Positions 17,937-34,830 of a stretch of DNA of 64,000 bases are shown here, one piece after another. This DNA comes from an uncultured Candidatus Saccharibacteria bacterium (GTDB lineage: Bacteria; Patescibacteriota; Minisyncoccia; Phycocordibacterales; UBA2100): positions 42,065 to 106,064 of the forward strand of contig CAZPGE010000002.1 in assembly GCA_964586255.1 (NCBI GenBank), in the 5' to 3' direction. The translations under genes were made by a program, and so were the position numbers. The notes beneath the pieces were generated by a model. That model had not been told where the DNA came from. It saw nothing but the letters and a program-made list of their open reading frames with translations, and did no database searches. The number at the start of each line of letters is the position of its first letter. Position 1 is the stretch's first letter.

Positions 17937-17984
17937 ACGCAGGTGCGTGGTCTTTCTATTTCGGCGTAAATACTGTACGTTCTT

Positions 17985-19436: not shown

Positions 19437-19494
19437 GCGAAAGGGGCGGGGATATTGCCTTTTTTGGGGCTTTAGTGCATACTCTGCGGGTTCT

Positions 19495-19857
19495 ATGACA
19501 GCGGAATCGACAGCGAAAAAGACTCGCTCTAAGGCGAAGAAGGCCGATGGAGCAAGTCGCCTGCGCATCAAAGTGCGTGCTTATGAGCACGGTGTCCTCG
19601 ATGGTGCGGTCAAGCAGATAATCGATGTCGCCGCTCGTCACAATGCCGAAGTTATCGGCCCTGTCCCGCTCCCCATCGACATCAAGAAATACACCGTCAA
19701 CCGCGCCTCTTTCATCGACAAGGATTCGCGCGAACAGTTTGAAATGCGCATCCACAAGCGCATGATTGATATCCTCAATCCTGCTGCGAAAGTGATCGAG
19801 GCTCTCACCAATATCGACCTGCCATCCGGCGTCTCGATAGACGTGAAGATGATGTAA
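19495..19857 (+). CDS. rpsJ: 30S ribosomal protein S10 with N-terminal Lys-rich extension
   Basis: ...RLRIKVRAYEH...KQIIDVAARHNAEVIGPVPLP...EMRIHKRMIDI... Confidence 0.93.
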   Translation: MTAESTAKKTRSKAKKADGASRLRIKVRAYEHGVLDGAVKQIIDVAARHNAEVIGPVPLPIDIKKYTVNRASFIDKDSREQFEMRIHKRMIDILNPAAKVIEALTNIDLPSGVSIDVKMM

Positions 19858-19866
19858 ATCCAAAAT

Positions 19867-19910
19867 CAAAAGGCCCGCGTCCGTCGACTGACGGAGCGGG
19901 CCTTTTGATT
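19867..19910. terminator. Bidirectional terminator hairpin between rpsJ (+) and the convergent methyltransferase (-)
   Basis: AAAAGGCCCGC...GCGGGCCTTTTGATTT. Confidence 0.6.
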
Positions 19911-19919
19911 TGCGTGGCC

Positions 19920-20600
19920 CTATCGTTGCTCGCGCTTGGTGCGACAGAGGATTGTCGTGAATCCGCATGATGTGTCGAGTATCTCAGGCTGGAAATCAAG
20001 TTTCTTGAGTGTCTCCGTATACCACTCGAGTGGTCGCGTGGTAAGGACGCCCACAAGTGCGGCTGCTTTTGCCGCGATTGCTTCTTCAGACAGGCCTTGT
20101 GCGCGTTTAAAATCGACATACTGCGCTTCGATATCCGGCGGGGAGGTCATTTTGTCGGTGAGGATGAATATGCCGCCAGGCTTGAGCGCGCTCCGGATGT
20201 CGCGCATATAGCTTTCGCGCTCCTCGACAAAATGCAGCGTCCAGTTAGCGAGCACGAGGTCAAAGGGTCCGAGGTGAGAAGGGAAGACGTCCGATTCAAT
20301 CAGATTCTCCTTCACACGCGAGTGCGCGAGCATGGCACGTGAGCTGTCCACACCCCACACATCGGTGAATCCTGCCATGCGGAGCTTCTCGAGTGTGTAG
20401 CCGGTGGCTGAGCCCACGTCGATAATGCGCGCATCTTTCGGCAGTGTACGCGCGACCTCTATACACTTCTCAATCACTTCCTCGTAGTGAGGAATATGTA
20501 TATGCGCCTCTTCGTCAAAGCGTGCCGCCACTTCCTCACCAAACTGCCACGTGCCTGCATTCATGGGTAGCATAGTGGCATACAGCAGACGCGTGTCCAT
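19920..20600 (-). CDS. Class I SAM-dependent methyltransferase
   Basis: Motif I IIDVGSATGY. Post-I ...VWGVDSS. Motif ...LKPGGIFILTD. Confidence 0.75.
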   Translation of the reverse strand: MDTRLLYATMLPMNAGTWQFGEEVAARFDEEAHIHIPHYEEVIEKCIEVARTLPKDARIIDVGSATGYTLEKLRMAGFTDVWGVDSSRAMLAHSRVKENLIESDVFPSHLGPFDLVLANWTLHFVEERESYMRDIRSALKPGGIFILTDKMTSPPDIEAQYVDFKRAQGLSEEAIAAKAAALVGVLTTRPLEWYTETLKKLDFQPEILDTSCGFTTILCRTKREQR

Positions 20601-20694
20601 GCACCGCTCTTGTCTTGCACAAGGGTACCGTACTCAAAAAATACACCCCGCCGATTTCTCGGCGGGGTTCTTTGTTGAGAGCGAGTTCGTCAGC

Positions 20695-22242
20695 TCACAC
20701 GACCATCGCGCTCTTCACGCGTTGCCGCGTAAGAGCAGTCGAGATCAGGACGATGACGCCGGAAGCAGCCATGGTCGTGACCGCTCCGACGATGGGCAAA
20801 TAGAGCGCCATCTGCCCGAGCGTTACCGCACCAAAGGACTGGCTGAGCGCCATCGTGATTGGCGCCATCCATTCCGTCGGATTGGCGAGGAAGTATCCGA
20901 CGACAGCCATCGGCCACCCCACAGTGAGGGAAATGACGATACCCCAGAACATTCCGCTTTCGCTAATCGTAGTTGTTCGACGTGCGAAAAGCGTGATGAC
21001 AGTCGGTAGGAACGTTGCCGCACCCAAAGAGCCGTAGATCAGAAAGAGGTGAATGATCTTCAGCCCAGGGATGACAGCGATGAGCACGCCGATGACGGGA
21101 ACCGCGAACATCGCGATACGTCCCGCACGAATCTGGTGCGCTTCGGAGTCGTGTGGTCGGAAGCGACGGAAGATGTCGCTTCCGAAGAGTGTTGCGACCG
21201 AGACGACGTGTGAATCAAGCGTCGAAATCAGTCCGAGCACCAAGCACATGGTGAACGCGACCGCCACAGGCCAGGGCAGAAGTTGCTGCACCAGCTCGAT
21301 GCCGACGTACTGCGGATTCGTAATCACGAACCCGCTTATCGTGTGGATTGCCCCAGCGGCGATGATGCCGAGGAGGGAGAGGGCCAGCACGACAACGGCG
21401 AAGATAGGTGCCGCGAGGAGAAACTGATTCCGCCTCGCTTTGCGCTCGCCCGCGTAGGCAAGCTGCCAGAAGCTCTGGTCTCGCCAGGGTCCCGCGAGCC
21501 AATTGAGCGACGCGGGAATGCCGAACGTGAGCATCAGGATATACGCTTTCTCGCCGACAAAGGGATTCACATAGTCCGCGTTCTTGCCGTAGAGACCTGC
21601 CGCGAGATTCTCCCAGCCACCCGCTTTCACGAATACCCACGGCAAGACGATTGCGAGCATCGTGATGAGCATCCAGCCCTTCGCGTTGTCGCTCAAGATG
21701 GAGGCCCGCATTCCGCCGAAGGCTGTGTAGATCATCGGTGCGAATGCGATTCCGATAGCTGCGTAGAGTTTTGGTATCGGGGTCAGATACGCAACCACCT
21801 CGGCGCCGGCAAGTACCTGCACCGCGAACGCCGACACCCCGAGAGCGCCGAGAGCGAGAAGGTAGAGACTCTCTACGCGCTTTGAATAGCGTCGCCCCAT
21901 GTATTCAGGGAGCGTGATTCCGAGCGGATAGAGTGAGGTGATGCGGTACGCTGCAAACGCGAAGAGCGCGAGACACAGCGCATTGATTGGCGTGTACCAA
22001 AACGGGCCAATCCAACCGTATTGGTACCCGAACATCGAAGAGATGAAGTAGGCCGGAGCCCAGGTCCACGCCGCGAAGCTGGCGACAGCTCCCATCAATG
22101 TCGAGGTTGCGCGATTGTTGAGGTAGTAGCTCGCCTTGGTCGTTTGCACGGCCGCAGAGCCGTACATGCTGATCCCGGTAATCATAGCGAGAAAAAGCAC
22201 CGCAAGACCAATGAATTGCGGTCCGGTCAGAAGATGTTCCAT
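20695..22242 (-). CDS. Sodium:solute symporter family-like transporter (about 13 TM)
   Basis: Polytopic membrane protein with SSS-like topology. Family assignment from general sequence resemblance only. Confidence 0.55.
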   Translation of the reverse strand: MEHLLTGPQFIGLAVLFLAMITGISMYGSAAVQTTKASYYLNNRATSTLMGAVASFAAWTWAPAYFISSMFGYQYGWIGPFWYTPINALCLALFAFAAYRITSLYPLGITLPEYMGRRYSKRVESLYLLALGALGVSAFAVQVLAGAEVVAYLTPIPKLYAAIGIAFAPMIYTAFGGMRASILSDNAKGWMLITMLAIVLPWVFVKAGGWENLAAGLYGKNADYVNPFVGEKAYILMLTFGIPASLNWLAGPWRDQSFWQLAYAGERKARRNQFLLAAPIFAVVVLALSLLGIIAAGAIHTISGFVITNPQYVGIELVQQLLPWPVAVAFTMCLVLGLISTLDSHVVSVATLFGSDIFRRFRPHDSEAHQIRAGRIAMFAVPVIGVLIAVIPGLKIIHLFLIYGSLGAATFLPTVITLFARRTTTISESGMFWGIVISLTVGWPMAVVGYFLANPTEWMAPITMALSQSFGAVTLGQMALYLPIVGAVTTMAASGVIVLISTALTRQRVKSAMVV

Positions 22243-22387
22243 CGTCTGAGTCCTTTGTGTTAGTCAGAGAACAGGTGTACAGATGCGACCGAGCGTCGCA
22301 TTCGCGCTCATCTTACATCACCAGTCTTTTCCCGCGTATTGACAGTGCGCCCCCCTCAGGGTTTGCGTACGTGGGGGGAGACGGGGT

Positions 22388-23494
22388 CTAAGAGAGTCCG
22401 ATGAAGTCGTTCTGCGGGTCGTAACAGACGCTCGGGTCGAGGTCCTTGTAGTAGTGGAAGTCCTCATCAATAAAATCGTACGATGCCTGCTGCATGATGA
22501 CATTGTGCAGAGAGCCGCGCTTCATCTTGTTGTCGCGATAATCCGCATCTTTCGTGAAATTGTATATTGCCTCCTTGCACACCCACTTGTACGTGCGCCA
22601 CTCATCTTTGATTCTTTTGTCCATATTATTCAGACTCCAGAGTTGGAATTCTTCCGTCCCGTAAAAAGATGCGTTGCGCGTGCGCACGTACTCAGGAGTT
22701 ATTTTATCGACATTGCGTGCTGCCACGGTCGTGAGCGTACGTAGGTAGGTGTTCTGCCATTTTTGCGAGAAGTTAATCCACCAGAGGTAATCGAAGTGCG
22801 TCTCGATGGGGACGGGCGCTTTTTCTATAGTGCGCTCGAAGAGGTCGAGAAAGAGATTGGTCGCTGCATCGTTCTGGATTGTCTCGTTCCAGAAGGTAAA
22901 GAAAGTCTCGCGCTTGCGCGGCGTATGAATGATTGCGGGCCCAAAGCGAGACATGAGTCTTCCGACTGAATCGAAGCCAAACAGCTGGTCGTTCTGCTCT
23001 CCGTTGGTCACGATGGAGTTACCGCCGAGAAGATAGGGATACATCATCGACGACCCCGCGCGAAGTTTTCCGCGCACGTATGTCTCGTAGAACAGCGGGT
23101 ATTCTGCGATAGATTCTTCTGTCATAAGTACGACGATGCGCTTCCTCTGCTCCGCAGTCGCGTTTTTTAGAAGTGAGGTGAGCACGAGTGTGGAATCGAT
23201 ACCGCCGGACCACAAGGTGTGGATGTCAGCGTCAAAAGAATCCGCGCGCGCGAGAAGCTCCAGCGCTCTCTCGTCGCACAGCTGTTCAAACGTCTTCTTC
23301 ATCGGTCGCATGGCGGGGATAGGGGTGATGAGCCTGGTCTTAATCGGCCAGCGAATGGAGCCGGTACGGTCAGTGGGAGCGAGTCCGACGGAAAACATCT
23401 TTCCTAGCAAGCGAAACGAGTTCACGCCGGGCAGTTCTGCATAGGGTGAGCGCGCGAGTACCAACGTGTTGTATTGGATGATTTCTTTTGCCAT
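22388..23494 (-). CDS. PP-loop ATP pyrophosphatase superfamily protein (AsnB C-terminal/QueC/TilS-like)
   Basis: SGGIDST PP-loop motif (..IHTLWSGGIDSTLVLTS..). Confidence 0.6.
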   Translation of the reverse strand: MAKEIIQYNTLVLARSPYAELPGVNSFRLLGKMFSVGLAPTDRTGSIRWPIKTRLITPIPAMRPMKKTFEQLCDERALELLARADSFDADIHTLWSGGIDSTLVLTSLLKNATAEQRKRIVVLMTEESIAEYPLFYETYVRGKLRAGSSMMYPYLLGGNSIVTNGEQNDQLFGFDSVGRLMSRFGPAIIHTPRKRETFFTFWNETIQNDAATNLFLDLFERTIEKAPVPIETHFDYLWWINFSQKWQNTYLRTLTTVAARNVDKITPEYVRTRNASFYGTEEFQLWSLNNMDKRIKDEWRTYKWVCKEAIYNFTKDADYRDNKMKRGSLHNVIMQQASYDFIDEDFHYYKDLDPSVCYDPQNDFIGLS

Positions 23495-23499
23495 AGAGA

Positions 23500-24204
23500 C
23501 TAGACGAGTTGTTTCGAATGACAGTCCAACATGAATTGTCGGACTATCTCAGGTATCTTATCGGATTCCGTTTCTCGTTTGATACGGTCAAAGTACCTAA
23601 GCCTCAGCGTCTCTGTCTTGGAGAGAAATGCATCATCCAACTCCGCATTAAAAAGAATACTGTCAGCTGCTTCGCGCAGCGAGACATTCGTGAGGTCTGC
23701 GTACTGCACCACGTAGGGGATGCTCATGAGCATGGACTCATCGTACCCGGACAGTTTGAATTTCTCGGCCTGCATCTTTTTCGTGAGGTAAATCGTCTCT
23801 TGAAAGGCCAGCCCTGTCCCTATCTTCGTGCGCAACCAATTGATTTCTGCGATAACTTGGGTCACGGCTTCGATGCGAGCTACAGCGAGCTTGGCCCGAG
23901 CGGGCAGACTTGGATCGACATCGTGTGGTTGTAGTCTCACGAACGCATGAAACTTTTGCTTGTACCCCCACTCGGGAAGTCGCACCGGATCCATAGAAGC
24001 AAGCGAAAGGCCTGTGTTATCGATAGCTGAGGTGCGAGGGGTAAATTGTGCGTCGGGTATGGAATCCGCGACAACCGCTACGGCTGCGACGTGGGGATGC
24101 AGCGCGAGAAGCGCAAATGTAGGTGGACCGACGAACAGTGCCCCGTAATTCACCGCCGCGCCCCTTGATTCTGTGCCACCGAACACCTTCTTTATGAGAG
24201 ACAT
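23500..24204 (-). CDS. Hypothetical protein (start trimmed to Met133 of the long ORF to remove the 330-bp overlap with the upstream gene)
   Basis: ORF in operon context. No motif recognised. Confidence 0.35.
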   Translation of the reverse strand: MSLIKKVFGGTESRGAAVNYGALFVGPPTFALLALHPHVAAVAVVADSIPDAQFTPRTSAIDNTGLSLASMDPVRLPEWGYKQKFHAFVRLQPHDVDPSLPARAKLAVARIEAVTQVIAEINWLRTKIGTGLAFQETIYLTKKMQAEKFKLSGYDESMLMSIPYVVQYADLTNVSLREAADSILFNAELDDAFLSKTETLRLRYFDRIKRETESDKIPEIVRQFMLDCHSKQLV

Positions 24205-24266
24205 CGAATCGATTATATCGGATGCGCCATCGATTGCGAACGGATGGGCATTTTCTGACGTATCGC

Positions 24267-25148
24267 TTACACGCGTGGAGTGAGTTGAGCTGTAAATTCT
24301 GGAATCGAAAGTGTATACCTCAGCACATGCTCGTCGGCTCTTTTTTTCAGCGCGTCTTTCAGCGCAGTCAAATCTGGAGAGATATTTTTCAAGCCGCGTG
24401 ATTTCGGACGATGCGCAAGGGTAGGCCAATATTGCTGAGACACGAGTCGTCTGAGCAGGGAAGCGTTTGCCGGATGATTGAATACATCCGGATGGTCGAG
24501 CGCGAAATCTATAAGCGGTATGCGTAGGTACGATAGACAAAGCTCGGGGGTGCTGTACAGAAAGTACGGTTCGTGTGAGGTGTTGTTTCTCTGGAGCCAT
24601 TCGAGTGGGACACCAAGTCCCGAGTTACATTCGAGGAATACGTCACTCCGAGACGGGTGCGCGCGCCCTGAATCAATTTTGTAGAGCTGTTTTCCCGCCG
24701 CTATGACTGCGTAGCCCTCCATCGCATCGACGGTCTCCATAAGTGCAATCTGCATATATCGTAGAAGATCAGAAGAGATGTAGTCTTGTTCCGTGTAGAG
24801 CAGCACCTGTTTTTCCAAGAAGCCACGCATGTCTAGGCGGACGATTTTTTGGTGCACTCCGTGTTTTTGACACCAGGTGCGGGCATGCTCGACCTCGTGC
24901 TCATTTGTTCCGTCGCCATACGCAATCGTCAGGACAGAGAAATTAATGCCCTGGTCAAAAAAAGAGTGGCACATTATCTCACTGTCGAGACCTCCGGAGG
25001 AGCAGAGCCAGAGGGGCTTCTGAGCTTTTGAAGCGATAGAGCGTGCCGCAGCGTAGAGTTCTTCTTTCCAGGTCAGTGGCTCTCGTGTACATGCGTGGAA
25101 CGTCACGGAGAATTTTCCAGCTTTGGTCTCACAGTGCATCGCGCTCAT
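24267..25148 (-). CDS. Second PP-loop ATP pyrophosphatase superfamily protein (start trimmed; the Arg-rich N-terminal extension of the ORF is probably not translated)
   Basis: CSSGGLDSEIMC PP-loop motif. Confidence 0.55.
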   Translation of the reverse strand: MSAMHCETKAGKFSVTFHACTREPLTWKEELYAAARSIASKAQKPLWLCSSGGLDSEIMCHSFFDQGINFSVLTIAYGDGTNEHEVEHARTWCQKHGVHQKIVRLDMRGFLEKQVLLYTEQDYISSDLLRYMQIALMETVDAMEGYAVIAAGKQLYKIDSGRAHPSRSDVFLECNSGLGVPLEWLQRNNTSHEPYFLYSTPELCLSYLRIPLIDFALDHPDVFNHPANASLLRRLVSQQYWPTLAHRPKSRGLKNISPDLTALKDALKKRADEHVLRYTLSIPEFTAQLTPRV

Positions 25149-25314
25149 GGAGGTACTATACGACAGAATCATCGGCCTACATGCGGTGACTTTATGCCAG
25201 GCAGGCAACCCGCGACGCTTGACAAGGTGCATGGAGCGATGGATAGTAGAGGTCGGAAGGAGCCGCGCATGCGCTTGGCATGTGTTCGGTGCGCCTGTCC
25301 CCATGGAGATAGCT

Positions 25315-25593
25315 ATGAGAAAGACTTTCTGGGGTCTTACTGGCCTCGCTCTTGCATTCGTCGTGGCACCGTCGCTGGTGCCGCTGCCGACAATGACCGC
25401 GGCCGGCCTCGAAATGAGGATCGACACGGCCGAAGCTCGTTGCGGCGACGAATGCCAGCGGCGTTGCCGCGTCTCGATTGCACAGGGCGAGTACAAGAAC
25501 ATGCGCGCCTGCATCGCGGTCTGGGGACCGCGCAATGATGAGCGGCATCGGCAGATCCGCGCCAACAGGCGCGCGTTCGGTCAGGCTCGCTGA
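25315..25593 (+). CDS. Small secreted Cys-containing protein (92 aa)
   Basis: GGAG RBS. Signal peptide MRKTFWGLTGLALAFVVAPSLVPL... Four Cys in the mature part. Followed by a hairpin. Confidence 0.4.
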   Translation: MRKTFWGLTGLALAFVVAPSLVPLPTMTAAGLEMRIDTAEARCGDECQRRCRVSIAQGEYKNMRACIAVWGPRNDERHRQIRANRRAFGQAR

Positions 25594-25617
25594 TTCGCCA
25601 GCCGCGCAGATATACAA

Positions 25618-25640
25618 CCCCTCGGTTCTCGGACCGAGGG
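25618..25640. terminator. CCCCTCGGT-tctcgg-ACCGAGGGG hairpin between convergent genes
   Basis: Direct inspection. Confidence 0.5.
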
Positions 25641-25648
25641 GTGCAATT

Positions 25649-27295
25649 TTATGATTTCCGTTTTAGACAGTACATCTCATTAGCAACGGTTCGGGCGAAA
25701 AGATGTTTCGTAGTCTCATTGCACGCAATTTTACTCATCATACGCTCGCTTGCCTGGAAATGGCCGCGATGTGTTCCTCGTTCTCTATCCAATTCGTACA
25801 AGCGTCCGTCGTTGGATCCAATAAAAAGTGAGTCGCCAATTGCGATAGGGGAGCCAAACACGCGGCCGTTGGTCTCAAACGCCCAGCGACGTTTCTTGGT
25901 GTCGATGTCTATCGCATAGACGGATTTGTCGAGCGACGCGACATATACCGTATCCCCCTGGACAAGAGGAATCGAATAGATGGCGCCGCCGGTTTCGTAT
26001 GCAAATACGGGTTCGCCAGTATCAGCGGCGAGAGCGTACAACTTTCCGTCCATCGAAGCAACAAACACGAGTCTTCTCTTTGCATCATACGCGGGTGCGG
26101 TCTTTATATCTCCGTCAGTCTTGTATCGCCACATGAGCGCGCCCGTATTTGCTTCGTAGGCGTAGCAGATGCCATCGTTGCTCCCAATCACCACCATCCC
26201 TTCTTCTTTTATATAGAGAGGAGTCCCGTGTGTGAGTGAGGAGGTGATGTCTTGCCAGCGTTTTTCGCCTGTATGCATATCGAGCGCGACAATACCGCCG
26301 CGCTTACCGAATAGCCCAAACTCAAGTCCGATGTAGAGAAGCCCAAGATCCGGCGCAATAGAAGGAGACGAGCCAACCCAATCAGCATCGTCGTATCCCC
26401 ATTTCTTCACCCCCGTCTTTGTATCAAGTGCGTACACGACTCCATCGTACGCACCAAAATAGAGCACTCCCTTGTGGAGTGCAGGTGTAGAGAGAATCCC
26501 CTTACCTTCAGGGTGCTTGCCGACCGTGAATTCCCAGATGATTGCACCAGTCCTCTGGTCGAGCGCCCGCATAGTGCCATCGTCGCATCCGAGAAAGACG
26601 AGCGTATCATCGAGCACCGGCGCAGATTTCTGTACGACAAGGTGGAGGCTGGGGTGCGGCCCCGTATAGCGCCACACAGTCTCAAACTCAGAGTTCTTAT
26701 TCGGCTGCACTTTCTTCAGAAGAGGTATCCCAAAATCTTCGAGGGTAAAAAGATGATTCACCGCGATGCTTCTGTCCTCGAGTGATTTGTATGCATCGCG
26801 CGCCCTGAAGGCGAGCATGGCAAATACATCCGTGACTTTTCTCCCCGTGTCGGCGAGTACTGCGAGCTGTTTCTCAAATGTCGAACCGGTGTTGATAAGA
26901 TCGTCGACGAGAATGACGGGGTGCTCGTCGAGCGTGCCCTCAATCTGGCGCATGAGCCCCTGACGTTTGCGTGACTTTCTTATATAGAAACCATTCACCG
27001 GTGTGCCACGCTCTATGCCCTTCATCACGATGGCGGCTACTAATGCTATGGCGGCCGTTTCCATCGCACCGACCTGGAAAGGGTATTTCGGTGCGTATCG
27101 TTCCCAAAATATCTCGGCGTAGCGATTGAGCCAGTATGGCTGGAGCATGAGAGCGCGAAAATCAAAGAGCCACGACTCGCGCCTCCCCGTACTTTCCGAC
27201 GCGACGATGACCGCACCCGATGATCGTCGCGCAAGGGCGACAGACTCTATTGTTCGGTGTAGGTCGCTATATTTATTGTCCATGCGAATCGTCAT
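25649..27295 (-). CDS. Fusion protein: type I phosphoribosyltransferase domain + PQQ-like beta-propeller repeats
   Basis: PRPP-binding motif VILVDDLINTGSTF. At least six repeats of xDGxxYAxDxxTGxxxW type in the C-terminal 350 aa. Confidence 0.7.
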   Translation of the reverse strand: MTIRMDNKYSDLHRTIESVALARRSSGAVIVASESTGRRESWLFDFRALMLQPYWLNRYAEIFWERYAPKYPFQVGAMETAAIALVAAIVMKGIERGTPVNGFYIRKSRKRQGLMRQIEGTLDEHPVILVDDLINTGSTFEKQLAVLADTGRKVTDVFAMLAFRARDAYKSLEDRSIAVNHLFTLEDFGIPLLKKVQPNKNSEFETVWRYTGPHPSLHLVVQKSAPVLDDTLVFLGCDDGTMRALDQRTGAIIWEFTVGKHPEGKGILSTPALHKGVLYFGAYDGVVYALDTKTGVKKWGYDDADWVGSSPSIAPDLGLLYIGLEFGLFGKRGGIVALDMHTGEKRWQDITSSLTHGTPLYIKEEGMVVIGSNDGICYAYEANTGALMWRYKTDGDIKTAPAYDAKRRLVFVASMDGKLYALAADTGEPVFAYETGGAIYSIPLVQGDTVYVASLDKSVYAIDIDTKKRRWAFETNGRVFGSPIAIGDSLFIGSNDGRLYELDRERGTHRGHFQASERMMSKIACNETTKHLFARTVANEMYCLKRKS

Positions 27296-27304
27296 TCGAC
27301 TGAC

Positions 27305-28018
27305 CTATCCTTTACACACGGTAATCGCAAGCACCGTCTGTTCCTGCTCCTCGTCGAGGTCGAGGAGCTCGGAGATACGTTCGTCGTTGAATCCTGCGTA
27401 CGGTCTGACGTTAAGATCGAGTGCGCATCCAACAAGCAAGATATTCTCACTCATGTGTCCCGCCTCGAGGAGTCCGTGCGTGTATGAGATGTCTCCATAT
27501 TTTGCGGAGGAGCGAGCCCATACGCTCGTGAAGACGATAAGAGTCGAGAGCGGGAGCGGCTCAGGGTACTTTGCCAGACTCTTCATATCGAAATCTTGGG
27601 GCAGATTCCAGAGCTGTTCCAGTGAATGTTCAGTCGGATTGTAGTGAAATACTGCTGGGGCCTGTGACTCGAGCGCCGTTGAGATGACGTATGTCTCTAT
27701 TGGATAGAGCCCGCCTCCGGAGGGGTAGTTTCGATAGTGTGCTCCGGGTCGCTTCTGAAGGGCGAGACCGAGGAGGGTGCCACACTCCTGAAGTGTAAGG
27801 TCGATACTTGGATTACCACTCAAAGCCGAATGACGCTTCTTGATTGCATCGGGCAGGGTGATACTGAGACCTTCTGGCTGCGGGAGAGGCACCTTCTGCA
27901 TCCGCGAATACACCTTGTGTACTCCTCGAGGCACGTCCTCCGGGCGGTGCGTGGCGCCCCTCTTTGTAAGCAGAGCACGGCGCAGTTCGGTATGTAAATG
28001 CGATATAAATGATGTCAT
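27305..28018 (-). CDS. SagB-type dehydrogenase (nitroreductase superfamily; TOMM azoline oxidase-like)
   Basis: YPSGGGLYPIETYV matches the PSAGGLYP signature of McbC/SagB dehydrogenases. Start overlaps the YcaO stop (ATGA). Confidence 0.75.
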   Translation of the reverse strand: MTSFISHLHTELRRALLTKRGATHRPEDVPRGVHKVYSRMQKVPLPQPEGLSITLPDAIKKRHSALSGNPSIDLTLQECGTLLGLALQKRPGAHYRNYPSGGGLYPIETYVISTALESQAPAVFHYNPTEHSLEQLWNLPQDFDMKSLAKYPEPLPLSTLIVFTSVWARSSAKYGDISYTHGLLEAGHMSENILLVGCALDLNVRPYAGFNDERISELLDLDEEQEQTVLAITVCKG

Positions 28019-29508
28019 GAAAATGGATGGGGCCTATCAGCAAACGGCTTGCTCAAGGGAGTATATCCGAGTGCTTTAGGGATGTCGTGCCATCTCGTGC
28101 CGCCAAATTGTTGGACCCACTCGTTGAGGTACGTCGGCTGCAGCTTCGGCATGATGACCATCTCAATGTGCAGAGATGAGGGATTTTTTGCCGATGAGGT
28201 GAGAGGGACCGAGATGCATTCAAGATGTGAGTCTTTGCACCACTGCACCACTCTCTCATAGTGTTCCTCCACAGTATCGATGTCCCACGCTTTGTCACCA
28301 ATCTCGATTTCAGGACCGCGAATCATAAACTCAAGATGCTTCGCGTTTTCAGGTACGCCCCAATAGTACAGGCGCTCGCGGTGGCCGATTTTTTCCGAGG
28401 GGGTGCGCATATCCCAGACGTTTCCCGCGCCAGTCCACAGGCTGTGCGCGCGATATGCCCGGAGCGCCTCAGTCATGGCTTTCTCGATGGCGTAGGGAAG
28501 TGACTGATGTGCCTTGAGGCCGACCACAAAGCGTGGCGCATTGCCACCAATGTCTTCGATGACCACCGCCACGGCGTGTGTCGGCGCGTCAGTGGGAAGC
28601 TGCAGTACGTGCGTTTTGAATTGGTACCTTTCGCACTGTGCGATAGCCCTGGCAAGCGATGGGTATTTCGCGCAGAGAGGGTCGAGTGCAAGGCGGGGAA
28701 GCGTCAATTGGTTAAACCACATCATCATATAGGCATCTCGCTCGATGACTTCAAGCGCTCCTGCAAGTCGTGCGCCGTTCTGTGTTGGCCATGTGGCGAG
28801 TCCGTTCGTGTTTTGTTGTCGTATGATCGGCTCTTCCGTACCACCTGTCATAGCGCGAGGTCGAACACCGCTCACCGTTTGCGCCGGTACGTATATGCGC
28901 TCTCCACTCACGAGAGAAGTGCCCTGAATCCAGAGGTACTCAGCATCTGGGCGGAGTTGCCGCTGAGGATGGCGTGTCCGTTGCTCATCGGAAAATCCGA
29001 CGAAATCCTCCGGGGCCACACGCGGGCCGATTGCACTGATCGCTTCCGAGGTAGCTCTTTTGGGGCTCATGAAATAGTCGTCCTGCGTCATCCAGATGTA
29101 TCGCTCAAGGGCCTCTGCGAGCGCGGCGTAGAGGGCACTCTCGTCATCTTCCCACGAAGTTCCTCCTACGTTGTGACTTGTGGGGTCGTTGCAGATAGCG
29201 TACCAACCTTTGGTTCGCGGTAAATCCGGCCAGAGATTTTTCACTGGTCCGAATGATTGTATGACCCCGTGCTTTTTCAGTAGTGCAGCCAGTGTGAGCG
29301 GTTCGAGTATATCAAGACGAGAAAAGGGTATGCTCCGCAAGTCCTTCACGACTTTGACACCAAGGCTTTTTTCGAGATACTCCGAGAGAGCCCCGAGCGC
29401 TCTCGCTTTAATATCGGAGCTGGAGAGTGTCTCACGGAACGGCACGGCGTCAAAAATCATGCGCCAATCATAGCAGTACCCATACCTCCCAGAAAGCATT
29501 CGCTCCAT
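28015..29508 (-). CDS. YcaO domain protein, paralog 1 (start set at MERMLSG with GGAG RBS; the longer ORF to 29952 carries a Pro/Gln low-complexity antisense artefact)
   Basis: GGTSWEDDESALYAALAEALERYIW and GALEVIERDAYMMMW motifs typical of the YcaO ATP-binding region. 60% identity to the 33278 paralog. Confidence 0.75.
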   Translation of the reverse strand: MERMLSGRYGYCYDWRMIFDAVPFRETLSSSDIKARALGALSEYLEKSLGVKVVKDLRSIPFSRLDILEPLTLAALLKKHGVIQSFGPVKNLWPDLPRTKGWYAICNDPTSHNVGGTSWEDDESALYAALAEALERYIWMTQDDYFMSPKRATSEAISAIGPRVAPEDFVGFSDEQRTRHPQRQLRPDAEYLWIQGTSLVSGERIYVPAQTVSGVRPRAMTGGTEEPIIRQQNTNGLATWPTQNGARLAGALEVIERDAYMMMWFNQLTLPRLALDPLCAKYPSLARAIAQCERYQFKTHVLQLPTDAPTHAVAVVIEDIGGNAPRFVVGLKAHQSLPYAIEKAMTEALRAYRAHSLWTGAGNVWDMRTPSEKIGHRERLYYWGVPENAKHLEFMIRGPEIEIGDKAWDIDTVEEHYERVVQWCKDSHLECISVPLTSSAKNPSSLHIEMVIMPKLQPTYLNEWVQQFGGTRWHDIPKALGYTPLSKPFADRPHPFS

Positions 29509-29524
29509 ACTCCACTCCAGAGCA

Positions 29525-29920
29525 TTGAACATCGTCGGCATTGTTGCGATAATGACTGGTATGGCGATGTTTGAAAAGATGAGTCGTGGCGTGCAAGGCA
29601 TTGTTGGGAAAATCGGGAGTGTAGCGCTCATCATGTTCGGATTTTTGCTGGTGTTTTCTTCCACGCATTCGAAAGCGGGGACTGCCCAGTCGCAGGATGG
29701 AATATTTGGCGCCGACGTCGCCCACGCAGATGCTCCGTATGACCCCAACAGCTGCACTACGGGCGACTGCGTCGCGTGTGCAGCCTGCACGAGTGACGGA
29801 GGGGCGGGTTGCGGCACCGGCGGTTGCACGGGCGGCGCCGATGGAAGTGGTGCTGGAGGAAGCTGTGCCGGCGATTGCGACAGCGGCGACGGCGGCTGCG
29901 GCTGCGGTGCCAGCGGCTGA
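29525..29920 (+). CDS. Candidate RiPP precursor-like peptide 1: hydrophobic N-terminal segment + Cys/Gly/Ser/Thr-rich C-terminus (alternative start 29579)
   Basis: ...DVAHADAPYDPNSCTTGDCVACAACTSDGGAGCGTGGCTGGADGSGAGGSCAGDCDSGDGGCGCGASG*. Divergent from YcaO-1. Confidence 0.5.
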   Translation: MNIVGIVAIMTGMAMFEKMSRGVQGIVGKIGSVALIMFGFLLVFSSTHSKAGTAQSQDGIFGADVAHADAPYDPNSCTTGDCVACAACTSDGGAGCGTGGCTGGADGSGAGGSCAGDCDSGDGGCGCGASG

Positions 29921-29943
29921 TTGCTGCGCATGGCAATGAATAC

Positions 29944-31044
29944 ATGTCTCATTCACTAAAACTCGTTGGTTGGCTCATTGCTTTGCTTGTCATTCCCGCG
30001 GGGTTGTATGCTCTGTATACATATATTTTCTATGACCCGAATCCTAGTCAGTTGACGCGGGATTTGGAGCAGCTCGTCGATGCAAAAGTACGTGGCGATG
30101 ATGCTGCAGCTCTCGCGCAGTACCAGCAGATTCTGAGCGACCCCACATCGACGGCAGAAGAGCGGGCCATAGCCGATGTCTATATAGCCGGTACCGAATT
30201 CAGTCTTTCCGGAGACATGAGCTCGCGACTCAGCGATGTGCGGAAAATGAAGAGGATTGTCGCTGACAGCACACTCTCCGCGACAGTGCGTGCCGCAGCG
30301 ATGAGCGTTCTGGGTAATGCATATGCGGTCTCGGGGGGAGATCCCGCGGTGTTCGCCGAGATCTACAAGGGCGCACCATTTGACTCCTACCTTGTCCCGG
30401 ATAGACCTCAGCTCTCTGCCATCAATCTACTGAAAGAGTCATACGCCATGCAGCCATCGTCGTTTGCGGCGAGCAAAGTGGCCGAGCTTGCTTCAGGTCG
30501 GTATTTTGCGAATCCGCAGCAGGACGCAACTACGACAGCGGCCTACGTCGCACTGGCGGAAGAGTACTTGAACAAGGCGGACATCGCGGCTCTTAGTGAG
30601 GCGCAGCAAAGACCTGCCACATACGCCAGTAGCGATCGATATATTTTGTATAGACTATCGAGAGCGATAACCGTCGGTCGTCTGGCAATACAAAAAGGAG
30701 AGCCATACAAAAATTCCTACCGTAAGGAATTCAATAACTTCATTGCACTTGCGCAATCAATACAGAGCACTCTCGCACACAATGTGGTGTTCAATGCGCG
30801 CTTCCAATACGCGAGGATTCTCGAGGCAGATGGGGATACGACAGCCGAGAAAACACAGCTCGACATACTTGCGCGAGAGTTGGATAGACTCTCCAATCCA
30901 AACACCATTCCGTTCGTGCTCTCCTTGAGAAATGCACGCGCACAGCCGACCGAAGCGATGTGGCTCTCAGTGCAAAGAATGTCGTCGACTTCGCCGGAGT
31001 TTAAGACCGCAATCGACAAGCTCACGGCCGCTTCATCGAGCTAA
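29944..31044 (+). CDS. TM-anchored alpha-helical protein, paralog A (366 aa)
   Basis: N-terminal TM LVGWLIALLVIPAGLYALYTYIF. Homologous to 35098..36231 (KGAPFDSYLV vs KDPPYSTFFV). Confidence 0.55.
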   Translation: MSHSLKLVGWLIALLVIPAGLYALYTYIFYDPNPSQLTRDLEQLVDAKVRGDDAAALAQYQQILSDPTSTAEERAIADVYIAGTEFSLSGDMSSRLSDVRKMKRIVADSTLSATVRAAAMSVLGNAYAVSGGDPAVFAEIYKGAPFDSYLVPDRPQLSAINLLKESYAMQPSSFAASKVAELASGRYFANPQQDATTTAAYVALAEEYLNKADIAALSEAQQRPATYASSDRYILYRLSRAITVGRLAIQKGEPYKNSYRKEFNNFIALAQSIQSTLAHNVVFNARFQYARILEADGDTTAEKTQLDILARELDRLSNPNTIPFVLSLRNARAQPTEAMWLSVQRMSSTSPEFKTAIDKLTAASSS

Positions 31045-31083
31045 AAGGAGAAAGATTCGTCGGCGTACGATACAAAAAAGAAT

Positions 31084-31104
31084 GGGCGGCACAACGTGCC
31101 GCCC
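31084..31104. terminator. GGGCGGCAC-aac-GTGCCGCCC hairpin between convergent genes
   Basis: Direct inspection. Confidence 0.5.
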
Positions 31105-31131
31105 TGTATTCGTGAGCGGCGCAGGCCGCTG

Positions 31132-31728
31132 TTATTTCGGAACCTTGTCGTTCGGGACAATGTCTCCGATCCTGGTCGCGAAGTCGACCCGCATCTGCGC
31201 GATCTGCAGCCGGGTAAACATATCCTTCTTGAACATCGGCCACCACTTCTCGGCCGAATGCAGAACCAGCATCGGCCCCAGATCACCTTGGATGACGCGA
31301 GCGCTCCTCGGATCGCCGGGAGCCTGGAGCCGACCCCACGATGCGCCGAGGGCGCATCTTCCGCCGGCGAACGGCAGATAGGAGTTTTCGCCATCCTTGT
31401 CGGTCTCGGCGAGAAACTTCTTCAGGTTTGCCGCTGACTTGAAACACCAGGTGACGCCCTTCAGCCTCGTCTGGTATTTGTCGCAGTCGGCGACGTCGGG
31501 CTGCCCGCCCTTCTCGGCGTTCAGCCAGGCCGATACGACGTCGTAATCGACCCGCGCACCCTTCTCGTGTTTTTTCCACGAGAATGCCACGCCGTCGTTG
31601 ACGACGATTTCGGTCAGAGGCTTCTTGTCCTCCTTCGCGACTGCGGGCTTCGCCACCTCCTGCGCGAGGCCAGCGCGGGAAAAACATGCCGCGAGGATGC
31701 CCGCGGCAACCAACAAAAGCTTTCTCAT
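31132..31728 (-). CDS. Putative lipoprotein (lipobox LAAC)
   Basis: MRKLLLVAAGILAACFS. No domain recognised. Confidence 0.5.
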   Translation of the reverse strand: MRKLLLVAAGILAACFSRAGLAQEVAKPAVAKEDKKPLTEIVVNDGVAFSWKKHEKGARVDYDVVSAWLNAEKGGQPDVADCDKYQTRLKGVTWCFKSAANLKKFLAETDKDGENSYLPFAGGRCALGASWGRLQAPGDPRSARVIQGDLGPMLVLHSAEKWWPMFKKDMFTRLQIAQMRVDFATRIGDIVPNDKVPK

Positions 31729-31843
31729 TGAGTCAATTCCTCTGGGTTCGAGGGGGCACTGGTACCCACCTGTGCGTATTGGAGACTATTTTCCCGACTT
31801 ATGCAAACGAATGTCACATTGGCCCGATATACAAAAAGGAAGA

Positions 31844-31889
31844 GGCGGTCACTGGAGACTCGAGAGTCAGTGCCGCCTTTTCTTTTTTT
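31844..31889 (+). terminator. Strong rho-independent terminator GGCGGTCACTGGAGACTCGAGAGTCAGTGCCGCC+TTTTCTTTTTTT with no confident upstream CDS
   Basis: Long hairpin plus 12-nt T-run. Possible 3' end of a small RNA. Confidence 0.5.
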
Positions 31890-32429
31890 GCGCCTGAGCG
31901 CAAAGGAGCATGGTCATTGCAGCGACCCGCTACCTGTAAAAAACATACTATGCTTCGCATGAAGGAGCAAGGAAGTCGGCGGGCGGTCACCCGCCCGCCG
32001 CCCCGGATGCTGCTTACGAGCTACTACACCCTAGTCGTACACGTGCCTACCGTGTGGTCACAAACACTGACCGGTGGTGGGGCACCTGTTGCACTTTGGT
32101 GCTTCCGACTTGCTGGCCGAAGCCACTTTCGTCGGATGGCTTGCACGAGTGCCTGCGAGGGCGCTCGTTGATGCAAACACGACTGCAATCGTGCCTGCAA
32201 GCAGCATCATCACTGCGTTTCGCATATGAGTCTCCGATATGCGATGAAGACGGAGGTTTACACGGGAATGTCCGCCAGTCTCCTAGGAGCTCGTCTACGC
32301 AATACTTGAAGAACGATCCCGCGCAGACCTTAGCGCGGTGGAGTGAGTGAGTCAATTTTTGATACTGCTGGTACGATCGCGTGGAGGAATTCCTTGATGT
32401 ATCCCAATAAATATGTACTAGTTCCGGTA

Positions 32430-32481
32430 GTCGGGATGAAATCCAGATGCCTCTGGGTACCCGTCGGCATGGGAGAGAAAC
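32430..32481 (+). promoter_or_regulatory. Conserved 5' leader (GTCGGGATGAAAyC-hairpin-GGTACCCGyC) upstream of small secreted Cys-rich peptide gene, copy 1
   Basis: Aligns with 32888..32928. The internal hairpins covary (CCAGAtgccTCTGG vs CCGGGagCCCGG). Confidence 0.4.
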
Positions 32482-32730
32482 ATGCACAAGAATATCGTGA
32501 TTGCGGCACTCGTAGTGTTCGGAGTCGCCGCCTCGTCGCCCTCGCAGGCGGGGAAGGCATCGGCTCGCACCTGCAGTGGGCAGCACAGCATCTGCCTCAA
32601 CTTCTGCAGCACATCGGGGCGGGGCGGGGACTGTACCAGTGATTGCGCCGGTCGTCAGGCCACGTGCCTGCAGACTGGAACCTACATGTGGATCAACAGT
32701 CCCACGATTAGGGGACTGGTTCGCAAGTAA
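32482..32730 (+). CDS. Small secreted Cys-rich peptide (82 aa, 6 Cys)
   Basis: Signal peptide MHKNIVIAALVVFGVAASSPSQA. Mature part GKASARTCSGQHSICLNFCSTSGRGGDCTSDCAGRQATCLQTG... Confidence 0.45.
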   Translation: MHKNIVIAALVVFGVAASSPSQAGKASARTCSGQHSICLNFCSTSGRGGDCTSDCAGRQATCLQTGTYMWINSPTIRGLVRK

Positions 32731-32887
32731 GGCGACTTGTGCGCCAAAGGGTACGAGACGTGCCAGGCAAACGCCCGCGATGCAGTAGCGTCCGGGCGTT
32801 TTTTTGCGCTACCCCTTTTTGGTTTCAGCGAGACGGTTGCTGAGAGCACCTTGACTCATGGCAATAAAAGTGTAGTAATACAGTCAG

Positions 32888-32928
32888 TCGGGATGAAACC
32901 GGGAGCCCGGGTACCCGCCTTGGAGGCA
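32888..32928 (+). promoter_or_regulatory. Conserved 5' leader, copy 2
   Basis: gtcgggatgaaaccgggagcccgggtacccgccttggaggcaatg. Confidence 0.4.
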
Positions 32929-33174
32929 ATGATGAAAAAGATCCTTCTCGGTACCGTCGTGGGTACCGCCCTGCTTGCGATGTTCGCGCTTACGCCGGCG
33001 TCGGCGCAGGGAACGAACTATGCCGGTCAGTGCTCGAGTTACTCGGCACCGGCGGACTGTCTGAAATGCTGCGGAACATTTCACAAGAGCTCGTACCTGA
33101 GCGCGGAATGCACGAACTCGTGCAAGATCAGCAACTTCCGCGATTCGAGGAACATGTCGCCGAAGCGCAAGTAG
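32929..33174 (+). CDS. Small secreted Cys-rich peptide (81 aa, 6 Cys)
   Basis: GGAGG RBS. Signal peptide MMKKILLGTVVGTALLAMFALTPASA. Mature part ...GQCSSYSAPADCLKCCGTFHKSSYLSAECTNSCKIS... Confidence 0.45.
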   Translation: MMKKILLGTVVGTALLAMFALTPASAQGTNYAGQCSSYSAPADCLKCCGTFHKSSYLSAECTNSCKISNFRDSRNMSPKRK

Positions 33175-33277
33175 TCGCGCGTATCAAGGCGCGCGTCGGA
33201 TGCGTCGGAGAGAAGTCTCCGACGCATTTTTTATTTTCGACGCTTTTTCGCGTAGATGCTTGAGAGGAGGAGAGGTA

Positions 33278-34783: not shown

Positions 34784-34830
34784 ACATTTCGTTTTTATAT
34801 GACACCCGCAGGGTGAATAATGGGGGAATC

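Follow-up and report, generated by a model that had tools for sequence, protein, structure and literature searches.

A conserved phosphoribosyltransferase/beta-propeller fusion encoded with YcaO and SagB: a candidate tailoring enzyme of ribosomal-peptide maturation

Why should a phosphoribosyltransferase (PRT) be fused to a PQQ-type beta-propeller, and what could such a protein contribute to an operon that also encodes a YcaO cyclodehydratase and a SagB-type dehydrogenase? The question is raised by one gene in the 64-kb stretch of DNA analysed here (the window), which has the following features:

25649..27295, minus strand: PRT/propeller fusion gene, 548 aa, ATG start, last in the YcaO-SagB-fusion operon (ORF and translation)
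26726..27268, minus strand: OPRT-like type I phosphoribosyltransferase domain, residues ~10-190
26936..26980, minus strand: flexible catalytic-type loop R106-K107-S-R109-K110...E119-G120, aligning with the RKSAKAHGMQRLIEG loop of M. tuberculosis OPRT
26876..26917, minus strand: PRPP-binding loop VILVDDLINTGSTF, residues 127-140, read from the sequence
25658..26686, minus strand: 8-bladed BamB/YxaL-like (PQQ-repeat) beta-propeller, residues 204-546

The coordinates and strand given by the first-pass annotation are correct for what is a single ORF, and the architecture it proposed, a type I PRTase joined to a PQQ-type propeller, is real, as seen from profile matches and from an AF2 model of the whole fusion (pLDDT 94.3, pTM 0.90). 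On the strength of this pTM, the model indicates that the PRT domain packs rigidly on the propeller in a fixed inter-domain arrangement. The explanation that two genes were merged by a frameshift or misassembly is refuted: the 548-aa ORF is uninterrupted, an identical copy of the protein is present on independent contigs, more than 100 full-length homologues found by homology search (536-569 aa, 54-87% identity) span ~99% of it, the two-domain model is confident, and 115 relatives occur in GTDB species genomes, a sample biased to relatives keeping two peptide patterns because it was gathered with those patterns. A signal peptide, also considered at the outset, is absent, and the N-terminus, MTIRMDNKYSDLHRTIESVALARRSSG, is hydrophilic and part of helix 1 of the PRT fold.

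Propeller repeats are recognised well above threshold by both PQQ_2 (158 bits, cutoff 27.6) and Beta-prop_ACSF4 (181 bits, cutoff 133). The initial count of at least six blades can be raised, as the AF2 model contains 8 four-stranded blades, the last of which is closed by the N-terminal strand 204-211 to give a closed 8-bladed propeller. The fusion shares this 8-bladed PQQ-repeat type with BamB and YxaL; it differs from them in being cytoplasmic, in lacking a lipoprotein or signal sequence, and in carrying a PRT domain at its N-terminus. The score for the BamB equivalog TIGR03300 is 169.8 bits against a cutoff of 285.2, and the PQQ-dependent dehydrogenase profiles TIGR03075 (91 vs 480 bits) and TIGR03074 (46 vs 833 bits) are not reached either; identification as a PQQ dehydrogenase was rejected on the TIGR03075 score.

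The PRT domain is a divergent type I PRT subfamily. Residues ~20-190 match the OPRT of M. tuberculosis (PDB 5hkf, E=5.5e-8), the five-stranded alpha/beta core fold is present, and VILVDDLINTGST, at residues 127-139, shows the hydrophobic run, two acidic residues and x4-G-S/T of a PRPP loop. In the Pribosyltran (PF00156) search proposed at the outset, the score is sub-threshold (16.7 vs 26.3 bits), but the PRT fold and PRPP site are clear; some fusion homologues do reach the PF00156 threshold. Across 150 family representatives at 50% identity, conservation is very high in the flexible loop (R106 100%, K107 97%, R109 97%, K110 98%, E119 98%, G120 99%) and in the PRPP loop (D131 and D132 99%, N135 90%, G137 89%, S/T139 92%), and such near-invariance would be unexpected if the domain were purely structural. 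The W/Y-x-F-D-x-R segment typical of OPRTs is also kept (D45 98%, R/K47 99%). However, R164, which aligns with what we take to be the orotate-binding Arg of OPRTs (presumably Arg156 in E. coli numbering), is conserved in just 55% of the family, and the match to TIGR00336 pyrE (E=2.8e-12, 46.7 bits) falls under its 106.8 cutoff; because of both, the acceptor is probably not orotate. The NF001729 score, 33.6 bits, is likewise under its cutoff of 245. A role for the DD motif in PRTases has been described elsewhere (PMC10299916).

The remaining genes of the operon and those downstream of it lie on the same strand:

27305..28018, minus strand: SagB-type FMN dehydrogenase (azoline oxidase), TIGR03605 107.6 bits, cutoff 78.4
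28015..29460, minus strand: YcaO cyclodehydratase, corrected to ~481 aa, Pfam YcaO PF02624 158 bits
25617..25642, no strand assigned: GC-rich hairpin, probable operon end, 6 nt past the fusion stop and shared with a convergent small ORF (terminator scan)
22388..25148, minus strand: three accessory genes downstream of the fusion, as in the next three lines
24267..25148, minus strand: QueC-like PP-loop ATPase (Pfam and NCBIfam QueC, weak)
23500..24204, minus strand: 234-aa protein
22388..23494, minus strand: PP-loop protein

SagB has PDB matches to McbC, BmdC and CyaGox, and the solved structures nearest to YcaO are TruD and LynD. On TIGR03604 SagD, YcaO scores 176.7 bits, below the cutoff of 219. 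The gene model of YcaO had to be corrected, since the Pro-rich N-terminus of its 645-aa ORF, considered as a possible domain, is instead the antisense of a precursor gene; the homologues, in fact, are all ~479 aa, and YcaO is a single-domain protein. The adjacency of SagB and the fusion reported earlier holds, although the stop codon of SagB is separated from the fusion by 9 nt and not 10. With this spacer, the 4-nt overlap (ATGA) of SagB and YcaO upstream, and the hairpin past the stop, co-transcription of the fusion with SagB and YcaO, as first suggested, is very likely judging from the gene layout. Termination on the minus strand would be our inference at this hairpin, because its T-run is on the plus strand only. 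The order YcaO-SagB-fusion is kept in many Patescibacteria, in differing surroundings.

The label "RiPP-like" given to the operon was confirmed, as precursor genes that had been missed earlier are present, the first of them divergent from the operon:

29552..29920, plus strand: precursor 1, with a hydrophobic anchor, VAHADAP and a 60-aa Gly/Cys/Asp/Ser core, divergent from YcaO (leader HMM E=2.8e-21)
29944..31044, plus strand: membrane-anchored protein of cluster C2, 366 aa, directly 3' of precursor 1
33278..34717, minus strand: second YcaO (Pfam YcaO 142 bits), with SagB and fusion not adjacent
34831..35091, plus strand: precursor 2, core VDPNACTDGTVPVDYFVYVDPGCGCGCGCGI (translation; leader HMM E=1.5e-19)
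35098..39855, plus strand: genes 3' of precursor 2, namely a C2 TPR, a DsbA-like protein, a rhodanese, two C4 TPR and C12 (Pfam and tblastn)

Precursors of this type begin with a hydrophobic anchor, carry a (V/I)AHADAP motif and end in a hypervariable Gly/Ser/Asp/Cys tail, and were recovered from 31 related loci in addition to the two in the window; they make up a TOMM-type precursor family that is new and whose leader holds a membrane anchor. Precursor 1 is the sole ORF in the window to pass the tail filter. The stringent tail filter detected a tail ORF in only 44 of 82 loci, many of the misses being truncated contigs. The density of tail ORFs rich in Gly, Asp, Cys and Ser is 8 times as high in the 2.5 kb nearest the fusion as it is 7.5-10 kb away. 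Asp is found in all 35 CPR cores examined, and the residue that follows a tail Asp is typically Gly, Ser or Cys. In Acidobacteriota, relatives of the fusion that lack YcaO adjoin Soli_cterm proteins ending in (GDGG)n, with Asp in all of these tails, and Asp/Gly tails also adjoin YcaO-less relatives in CPR and other loci.

As for the surroundings, the cluster sits between rpsJ (S10) and rplC (L3), the gene row at 35098..39855 (plus strand) continuing into rplC. Cluster C2 is found in 38 of 82 loci, with weak TPR matches in other members and no match in a Pfam search with the copy at 29944..31044. The accessory pair C19-C18 was seen at 10 GTDB loci, in most cases 3' of the fusion, and also follows it on contig P0346. 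Neighbour clusters C5, C7, C14, C19 and C21 have no specific NCBIfam or Pfam family name; for the polytopic membrane protein C5, a comparison with HTTM (gamma-carboxylase-like) gave an hhalign probability of 0.4%, from a template in which a single full-length sequence predominates. Domain searches retrieved no E1-like/Ocin-ThiF partner with an RRE among the neighbours in the window or the recurrent neighbour clusters, and a cryptic RRE may be housed in the ~100-residue N-terminus of YcaO. No Rfam family for a riboswitch or other RNA element reached threshold anywhere in the window. A role in anti-phage defence was considered and discarded, as PADLOC yields weak generic PRTase matches alone (E about 1e-3).

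The combination of domains had been called unusual, which is true in that our full-text literature searches found nothing on the PRTase-propeller fusion or its YcaO/SagB system, but not in the sense of rare, as the family falls into 405 or more clusters at 50% identity. The papers on CPR bacteria found to mention YcaO list antiSMASH matches and nothing beyond, and the curated families hold no specific Pfam or NCBIfam name for the fusion. Most of the 150 PRT-subfamily matches listed are 520-580 aa long, the propeller was carried by 20 of 20 variants checked with Pfam, and the PRT domain never occurs without it among the proteins checked. Co-occurrence with YcaO, one of the points raised at the start, is strong in close relatives but does not extend family-wide, so that the link is clade-specific: of the 25 loci with a fusion of 50% identity or more, 24 have YcaO no farther than 10 kb away, as do 20 of the 20 that retain 4 kb or more of sequence upstream, but YcaO is absent from 42 of 79 GTDB loci. 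Sampling in reverse, from the loci of three YcaO homologues, returned the YcaO-SagB-fusion order in two; one of the YcaO-SagB loci sampled encodes a precursor of similar type but no fusion within 8 kb, and the fusion is therefore not obligatory for this precursor type. The idea of an obligate YcaO partner was consequently rejected, and since the family also occurs without YcaO, the fusion is not dedicated to it. Elsewhere, the PRT-propeller core is itself fused to an Asp/Asn beta-hydroxylase (4 cases, N- or C-terminal), to HlyC acyltransferase (4), to Stf0 sulfotransferase, to a formyltransferase and to a C39-ABC exporter. Type I secretion genes neighbour some relatives, and they are present together with HlyC genes on unclassified metagenome contigs that hold the family.

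These data bear on the first-pass suggestion of a cytoplasmic metabolic enzyme captured by the island, that is, a PRTase of salvage or cofactor synthesis acting on orotate or another base, with an indirect or accidental link to the peptide. CPR bacteria depend on salvage, the nearest relatives of the domain in sequence and structure are orotate PRTases, and the W/Y-x-F-D-x-R segment is retained; yet the pyrE cutoffs are missed, the presumed orotate-binding Arg position is unconserved, the propeller is always fused among the proteins checked, and the gene is kept in peptide-maturation operons, joined to protein-modifying and export domains, and tracks tail-encoding genes even where YcaO is absent. 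We consequently regard this explanation as very improbable.

The reading that we tentatively prefer, with a confidence somewhat short of even, is that the fusion is a PRPP-dependent tailoring enzyme of ribosomal-peptide maturation, in which the propeller docks the tail and the PRT domain modifies it. What was observed directly is the two-domain architecture, a PRPP site kept intact across the family, the conserved operon, the precursors, and an association, throughout the family, with Gly/Asp tails and with domains for peptide modification and export. Working in the cytoplasm, the fusion would act on the product of the divergent precursor gene, a small protein with its anchor, (V/I)AHADAP motif and Gly/Ser/Asp/Cys tail. 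YcaO and SagB would convert Cys and Ser of this tail to azol(in)es, and the fusion would work on the same tail independently of YcaO: the 8-bladed propeller would dock the Gly/Asp-rich stretch, and the OPRT-derived domain would bind PRPP-Mg and move 5-phosphoribose to a tail side chain with release of pyrophosphate, the likeliest acceptor being an Asp carboxylate, a beta-hydroxy-Asp or a Ser hydroxyl. We infer the use of PRPP, and the transfer proposed, because the PRPP-site residues are intact; the peptide as acceptor, the choice of acceptor residue and the docking of the tail by the propeller are likewise proposals of this model. To our knowledge, no PRPP-dependent peptide modification has been described. 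As counterpoints to this main reading, the basic RKSRKR loop could bind the acidic tail electrostatically rather than pyrophosphate, a precursor of similar type occurs without the fusion, the stringent filter misses a tail ORF in many loci, and the GTDB sample has the bias noted above.

The fusion might, alternatively, be a non-catalytic docking or scaffold subunit, with the propeller, possibly together with the basic PRT loop, presenting the precursor to YcaO/SagB or other tailoring enzymes. It would then replace the missing E1-like/RRE partner of TOMM cyclodehydratases, with a PRT domain that merely senses PRPP, like that of the PurR repressor, or binds the acidic tail. This we consider unlikely, if the strongest of the rivals: family-wide conservation reaches 90-100% in the DD pair, the 5-phosphate loop and the R-K-x-R-K loop, an acidic tail would be repelled by the two adjacent Asp, and the family occurs without YcaO just as YcaO-SagB occurs without the fusion.

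The prominence of Asp in the tails also allows for PRPP to serve as an activating group, with a transient ribose-5-phosphate ester on Asp attacked by the next amide or another nucleophile to give aspartimide or isoaspartate. Asp is present in every CPR core and Acidobacterial tail, typically followed by Gly, Ser or Cys, the Asp-Ser dipeptide is over-represented among CPR cores (z=6.0), and (GDGG)n recurs in Acidobacteriota; Asp-Gly, however, is depleted in CPR cores rather than enriched (z=-3.3), and the proposal is one of chemical reasoning in which PRPP plays a part without precedent, which makes it improbable in our opinion. PIMT-like O-methyltransferases do make aspartimides in RiPPs, so that their enzymatic formation through carboxylate esterification is established (PMC13001092). 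The likeness of these enzymes to the fusion is functional only, lying in the proposed action on Asp carboxylates of a ribosomal peptide; the folds are unrelated, and the cofactor is SAM there and would be PRPP here.

Set against known systems, the preferred reading of a PRPP-dependent tailoring enzyme finds partial counterparts. With TOMM clusters such as McbBCD, SagBCD and the cyanobactin heterocyclases, the locus shares YcaO, nearest to TruD and LynD, a SagB/McbC-type dehydrogenase above the TIGR03605 cutoff, and precursors with Cys/Ser/Thr-rich cores beside the enzymes (29552..29920 and 34831..35091, plus strand), and azol(in)e formation on the tail by YcaO/SagB is predicted. The core of microcin B17, Gly/Ser/Cys-rich, resembles that of the precursor here. 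Unlike in TOMM clusters, no E1-like/RRE partner was found in our searches, the leader combines an AHADAP motif with a hydrophobic helix resembling a membrane anchor, genes for membrane TPR, DsbA and rhodanese proteins follow closely after the precursor on its strand, and the cluster is placed between rpsJ and rplC; a PRT/propeller accessory gene is, as far as we know, absent from TOMM clusters. Compared with PyrE of the short M. tuberculosis type (PDB 5hkf/5hkl), the PRT domain is 22% identical, scores under the pyrE and Pribosyltran cutoffs, varies at the putative orotate-binding Arg, and is propeller-fused in a peptide-maturation context. The CriT domain of the Hib capsule polymerase Bcs3, a PRPP-dependent O-ribofuranosyl-5-phosphate transferase, is distantly related; in CriT the function of the DD pair is divided between two loops, unlike in the fusion, the acceptor is a glycan and not a peptide, and a phosphatase, CrpP, accompanies it, whereas no dedicated CrpP-like phosphatase was seen in the conserved neighbourhood of the fusion.

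In conclusion, the fusion is a real, widely conserved and previously uncharacterised enzyme family that may perform a new peptide modification. If its PRT domain acts on peptide, PRPP would join ATP, SAM, NAD and nucleotide sugars as a modification donor, and we know of no description of PRPP-donor chemistry on ribosomal peptides. It is possible, if rather doubtful, that the family is the first PRPP-dependent peptide or protein modifier, acting on Asp/Ser of Gly/Asp tails and defining a cross-phylum system of tail modification and export; such a system would be common to Patescibacteria (with YcaO/SagB), Acidobacteriota (Soli_cterm, (GDGG)n) and unclassified metagenome contigs. With its clusters, at least 405 in number, the family offers a genome-mining handle for hidden Gly/Asp-tail substrates, which occur in CPR bacteria and soil Acidobacteriota, and is thus relevant to both RiPP and CPR biology, the latter being still mostly unknown. 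In Paceibacteria, placement between rpsJ and rplC suggests a core cell-envelope function of the system in these ultra-small cells rather than an accessory antibiotic, and the conserved S10-L3 position hints that its product is relevant to their basic physiology.

The phosphoribosyltransferase (PRT)/propeller fusion is the last gene of an operon that begins with YcaO and SagB, and the gene models of the operon and of nearby elements are as follows.

22388..23494, minus strand: second PP-loop ATPase, whose homologues carry a YSGGIDS-type motif
24267..25148, minus strand: QueC-like PP-loop ATPase
25617..25642: GC-rich hairpin after the fusion stop codon, common to a convergent small ORF
25649..27295, minus strand: PRT/propeller fusion, 548 aa, ATG start, uninterrupted
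27305..28018, minus strand: SagB-type gene, above the TIGR03605 cutoff, resembling McbC, BmdC and CyaGox
28015..29460, minus strand: YcaO gene as corrected, starting at 29460
29552..29920, plus strand: precursor 1
33278..34717, minus strand: second YcaO, with its own divergent precursor and no SagB or PRT/propeller gene adjoining
34831..35091, plus strand: precursor 2, divergent from the second YcaO

The first-pass annotation placed the fusion 10 bp downstream of SagB on the same strand; the adjacency stands, but the distance from the SagB end to the fusion ATG is 9 nt, and SagB and YcaO share a 4-nt overlap. Because YcaO homologues are uniformly about 479 aa long, the 645-aa YcaO ORF is an overcall, and its Pro-rich N-terminal stretch of about 165 residues (29461..29952, minus strand) is not real, being antisense of precursor 1. 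Among solved structures, this YcaO is closest to TruD and LynD, which form azolines. Between the two PP-loop ATPases (22388..25148, minus strand) sits a 234-aa protein with no family match; 10 GTDB loci, some of them devoid of YcaO, contain the 234-aa/PP-loop pair, which mostly lies downstream of the fusion and immediately follows it in loci L018, L037 and L050. The convergent small ORF (25303..25593, plus strand) has a signal-peptide-like start and several Cys residues, and is called as a gene on an identical Logan contig. A 210-aa ORF (16972..17604, minus strand) gave a weak, sub-cutoff SUKH-4 immunity-protein match (E=4e-4), and an Rfam scan of the whole window (1..64000) returned no family at gathering score.

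Over 100 homologues of 536-569 aa, with about 99% coverage and 54-87% identity, exclude a frameshift artefact, and several independent contigs carry an identical protein; the fusion is hence one genuine gene, and an artefact of any kind is practically out of the question. Its N-terminal 190 residues or so are matched by orotate phosphoribosyltransferases (OPRTs), the top PDB match being that of M. tuberculosis (5hkf, E=5.5e-8, residues 21-190 aligned), in an alignment spanning both the PRPP loop, which lies as previously claimed at residues 127-140 (VILVDDLINTGSTF), and the flexible loop (IRKSRKRQGLMRQIEG in the query vs VRKSAKAHGMQRLIEG). NCBIfam pyrE (TIGR00336) matches at E=2.8e-12, but its 46.7 bits fall short of the 106.8-bit cutoff, and Pfam Pribosyltran is likewise sub-threshold (16.7 vs 26.3 bits). 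PQQ_2 and Beta-prop_ACSF4 recognize the propeller above cutoff (at 158 and 181 bits, respectively), and where at least six blades had been counted, the AF2 model of the full-length protein (pLDDT 94.3, pTM 0.90) has eight four-stranded blades, the last closed by strand 204-211. Designed 8-bladed propellers, YxaL and BamB are its closest structural neighbours; by score it is neither a BamB equivalog (169.8 bits against a cutoff of 285.2) nor a PQQ dehydrogenase (91 against 480). No signal peptide was found, as the N-terminus is hydrophilic and belongs to the PRT fold. Existing annotations of homologues read only "PQQ-binding-like beta-propeller repeat protein" or "BamB/orotate phosphoribosyltransferase", the fusion has no named family in Pfam or NCBIfam, and the literature searched yielded no paper on the family.

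Over 150 family representatives at 50% identity, the conserved positions are those of the PRPP-Mg site and closing loop of type I PRTases: R106 (100%), K107 (97%), R109 (97%), K110 (98%), E119 (98%) and G120 (99%) in the flexible loop; D131 and D132 (99% each), N135 (90%), G137 (89%) and S/T139 (92%) in the PRPP loop; and D45 (98%), R/K47 (99%), Q74 (97%) and E79 (99%) elsewhere. The role of the DD motif in PRTases is summarised in PMC10299916. A phmmer search over 1.84 billion cluster representatives, with the PRT domain as query, gave 405 hits at E<=1e-10, mostly of 520-580 aa among the best 150, and the propeller was present in all 20 variants checked by Pfam. Position R164, which aligns with the putative orotate-binding Arg of OPRT, is conserved at only 55%, so that orotate is probably not the acceptor; that the fusion is a small-molecule PRTase at all seems to us very improbable.

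Further domains are joined to the PRT-propeller in longer variants: an Asp/Asn beta-hydroxylase (at the N-terminus of P0182 and P0236 and at the C-terminus of P0254 and P0264), an HlyC acyltransferase (P0181, P0225, P0241), a Stf0 sulfotransferase (P0152), a formyltransferase domain (P0135), and a full C39-peptidase ABC exporter with HlyC (P0245). All of these partners serve in protein modification or peptide export. Type I secretion membrane-fusion proteins lie near two of the longer variants, one of these contexts adding a separate Asp hydroxylase, a 2OG oxygenase and an acetyltransferase.

Precursor 1, which the first-pass annotation had missed, lies opposite the Pro-rich part of the long YcaO ORF and reads MTGMAMFEKMSRGVQGIVGKIGSVALIMFGFLLVFSS...GADVAHADAP followed by the core YDPNSCTTGDCVACAACTSDGGAGCGTGGCTGGADGSGAGGSCAGDCDSGDGGCGCGASG; the core of precursor 2 is VDPNACTDGTVPVDYFVYVDPGCGCGCGCGI, ending in GCGCGCGCGI. 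A profile of the hydrophobic helix and AHADAP motif matches exactly these two in the window, and finds the family in 31 related loci. Cores are hypervariable, with 12-71 residues except for a 130-residue read-through in L014, and consist of Gly (32%), Ser (19%), Asp (16%) and Cys (12%), Asp being present in 35 of 35. The precursor is a putative YcaO/SagB substrate of a microcin-B17-like type, with an unusual, membrane-anchor-like leader. The one SagB and one fusion of the window may serve both precursors. Downstream of precursor 2, on the same strand, are membrane-anchored DsbA-like thioredoxin (36215..36928) and rhodanese (36861..37478) genes, a pair found again in about a dozen related loci, suggesting that the Cys-rich tail undergoes thiol or sulfur chemistry outside the cytoplasm. 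A 198-aa protein (31132..31728, minus strand), located between the two YcaO modules and having an N-terminal signal peptide and a homologue in L014, gave a weak, sub-cutoff match to the metal-binding type YHS domain (NF041384, E=9.6e-8).

A GTDB scan of one genome per species, gathered by two peptide patterns, yielded 115 relatives of the fusion and 79 retrieved loci; Patescibacteria of Paceibacteria type (Kaiser-, Nomura-, Giovannoni- and Adlerbacteria) make up the majority, and a distinct Acidobacteriota group shows 36-40% identity. Co-occurrence with YcaO, detected by tblastn with window proteins at matches reaching down to about 20% identity, is nearly constant among close relatives and much less frequent among distant ones: YcaO lies within 10 kb in 24 of 25 loci with a fusion at least 50% identical to the query (20/20 where at least 4 kb upstream was available), in 7 of 23 at 41-49%, and in 6 of 31 below 41%. 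Sampling from the YcaO side, the fusion directly follows SagB in two of three distant homologues, and L092 carries YcaO, SagB and a similar precursor without it. By crude ORF calling and neighbour clustering, the recurrent order in CPR loci is L2< L23< L4< L3< C12< C4< C4< C2< precursor< | YcaO> SagB> (C5>) fusion> (C19> C18>), where C2 and C4 are membrane-anchored and carry TPR repeats (weak in C2, strong in C4), C5 is a polytopic membrane protein without family match, and C18, like C23, is a PP-loop ATPase; genes for membrane-anchored DsbA-like and rhodanese proteins are also common. The system, about 20 kb long in the window, is nested there between rpsJ (S10; 19495..19857, plus strand) and rplC (L3; 39965..40588), the precursor-2 gene row leading straight into rplC-rplD-rplW-rplB (39965..42528, plus strand). 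Such nesting is repeated in L004, L091 and L092, and linkage on the L3 side is shared by many other Paceibacteria loci, among them the P0346 contig, whose S10 gene lies outside the stretch shown. This speaks for ancient vertical inheritance and against a mobile island. In CPR locus L006 (3703..6112), an HTTM (vitamin-K-carboxylase-like)/DCC1-like protein and an Asp/Asn beta-hydroxylase, enzymes acting on acidic residues in other systems, adjoin the C2-YcaO-SagB-fusion module.

CPR loci without YcaO retain C2, C4 and C5, and encode small anchored proteins with tails of nearly all Asp and Gly, often with one Cys; additional loci have Asp/Gly runs beside the fusion gene. In 13 Acidobacterial loci, the neighbour of the fusion is a protein of about 400 aa with a Solibacter C-terminal domain (TIGR03437, E=9e-46) and a (GDGG)n tail, followed by an unnamed 372-aa secreted protein. 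Such tail proteins (in L058, L061, L063, L069-L075, L077, L079, L080, L082 and L087) always adjoin the PRT/propeller gene and the 372-aa protein, and in a related locus an Asp-hydroxylase-PRT-propeller fusion precedes the same kind. ORFs passing a stringent tail filter, of which the 64-kb window has only one, have a density of 6.3 per 100 kb at up to 2.5 kb from the fusion, as against 0.8 at 7.5-10 kb. Since tails persist without YcaO and are denser near the fusion, the common denominator of the family is a Gly/Asp-rich C-terminal tail, and not YcaO. A non-catalytic docking subunit replacing the absent E1-like/RRE partner would be consistent with our finding no such partner and with the RRE-like pattern of fusions; because it leaves both the invariant PRPP site and the YcaO-less members unexplained, we consider it rather unlikely.

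The reading we favour, tentatively but as a real possibility suggested by these sequence patterns, is that the propeller would dock the Gly/Asp-rich tail of the precursor in the cytoplasm, before export, and the PRT domain would phosphoribosylate a tail side chain with PRPP as donor. Asp would be the best acceptor candidate, since no other residue with a side chain is shared by all tails; with a fused or neighbouring hydroxylase it would be beta-hydroxy-Asp, and in CPR cores Ser is an alternative. By analogy with PIMT-like RiPP enzymes (PMC13001092), PRPP might instead activate Asp towards aspartimide, which we judge improbable. In the clade of the query, the Cys/Ser residues of this tail would be the targets of YcaO and SagB. 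The anchor helix and AHADAP, an A-x-A-like motif, would fit a later insertion into the membrane followed by cleavage, and the extracytoplasmic TPR, DsbA and rhodanese partners would point in the same direction. The cluster is a TOMM/LAP variant whose precursor type and accessory enzyme are both new; we are fairly confident that the fusion gene is a dedicated component of a tail-maturation system, and its family extends well beyond TOMM clusters.
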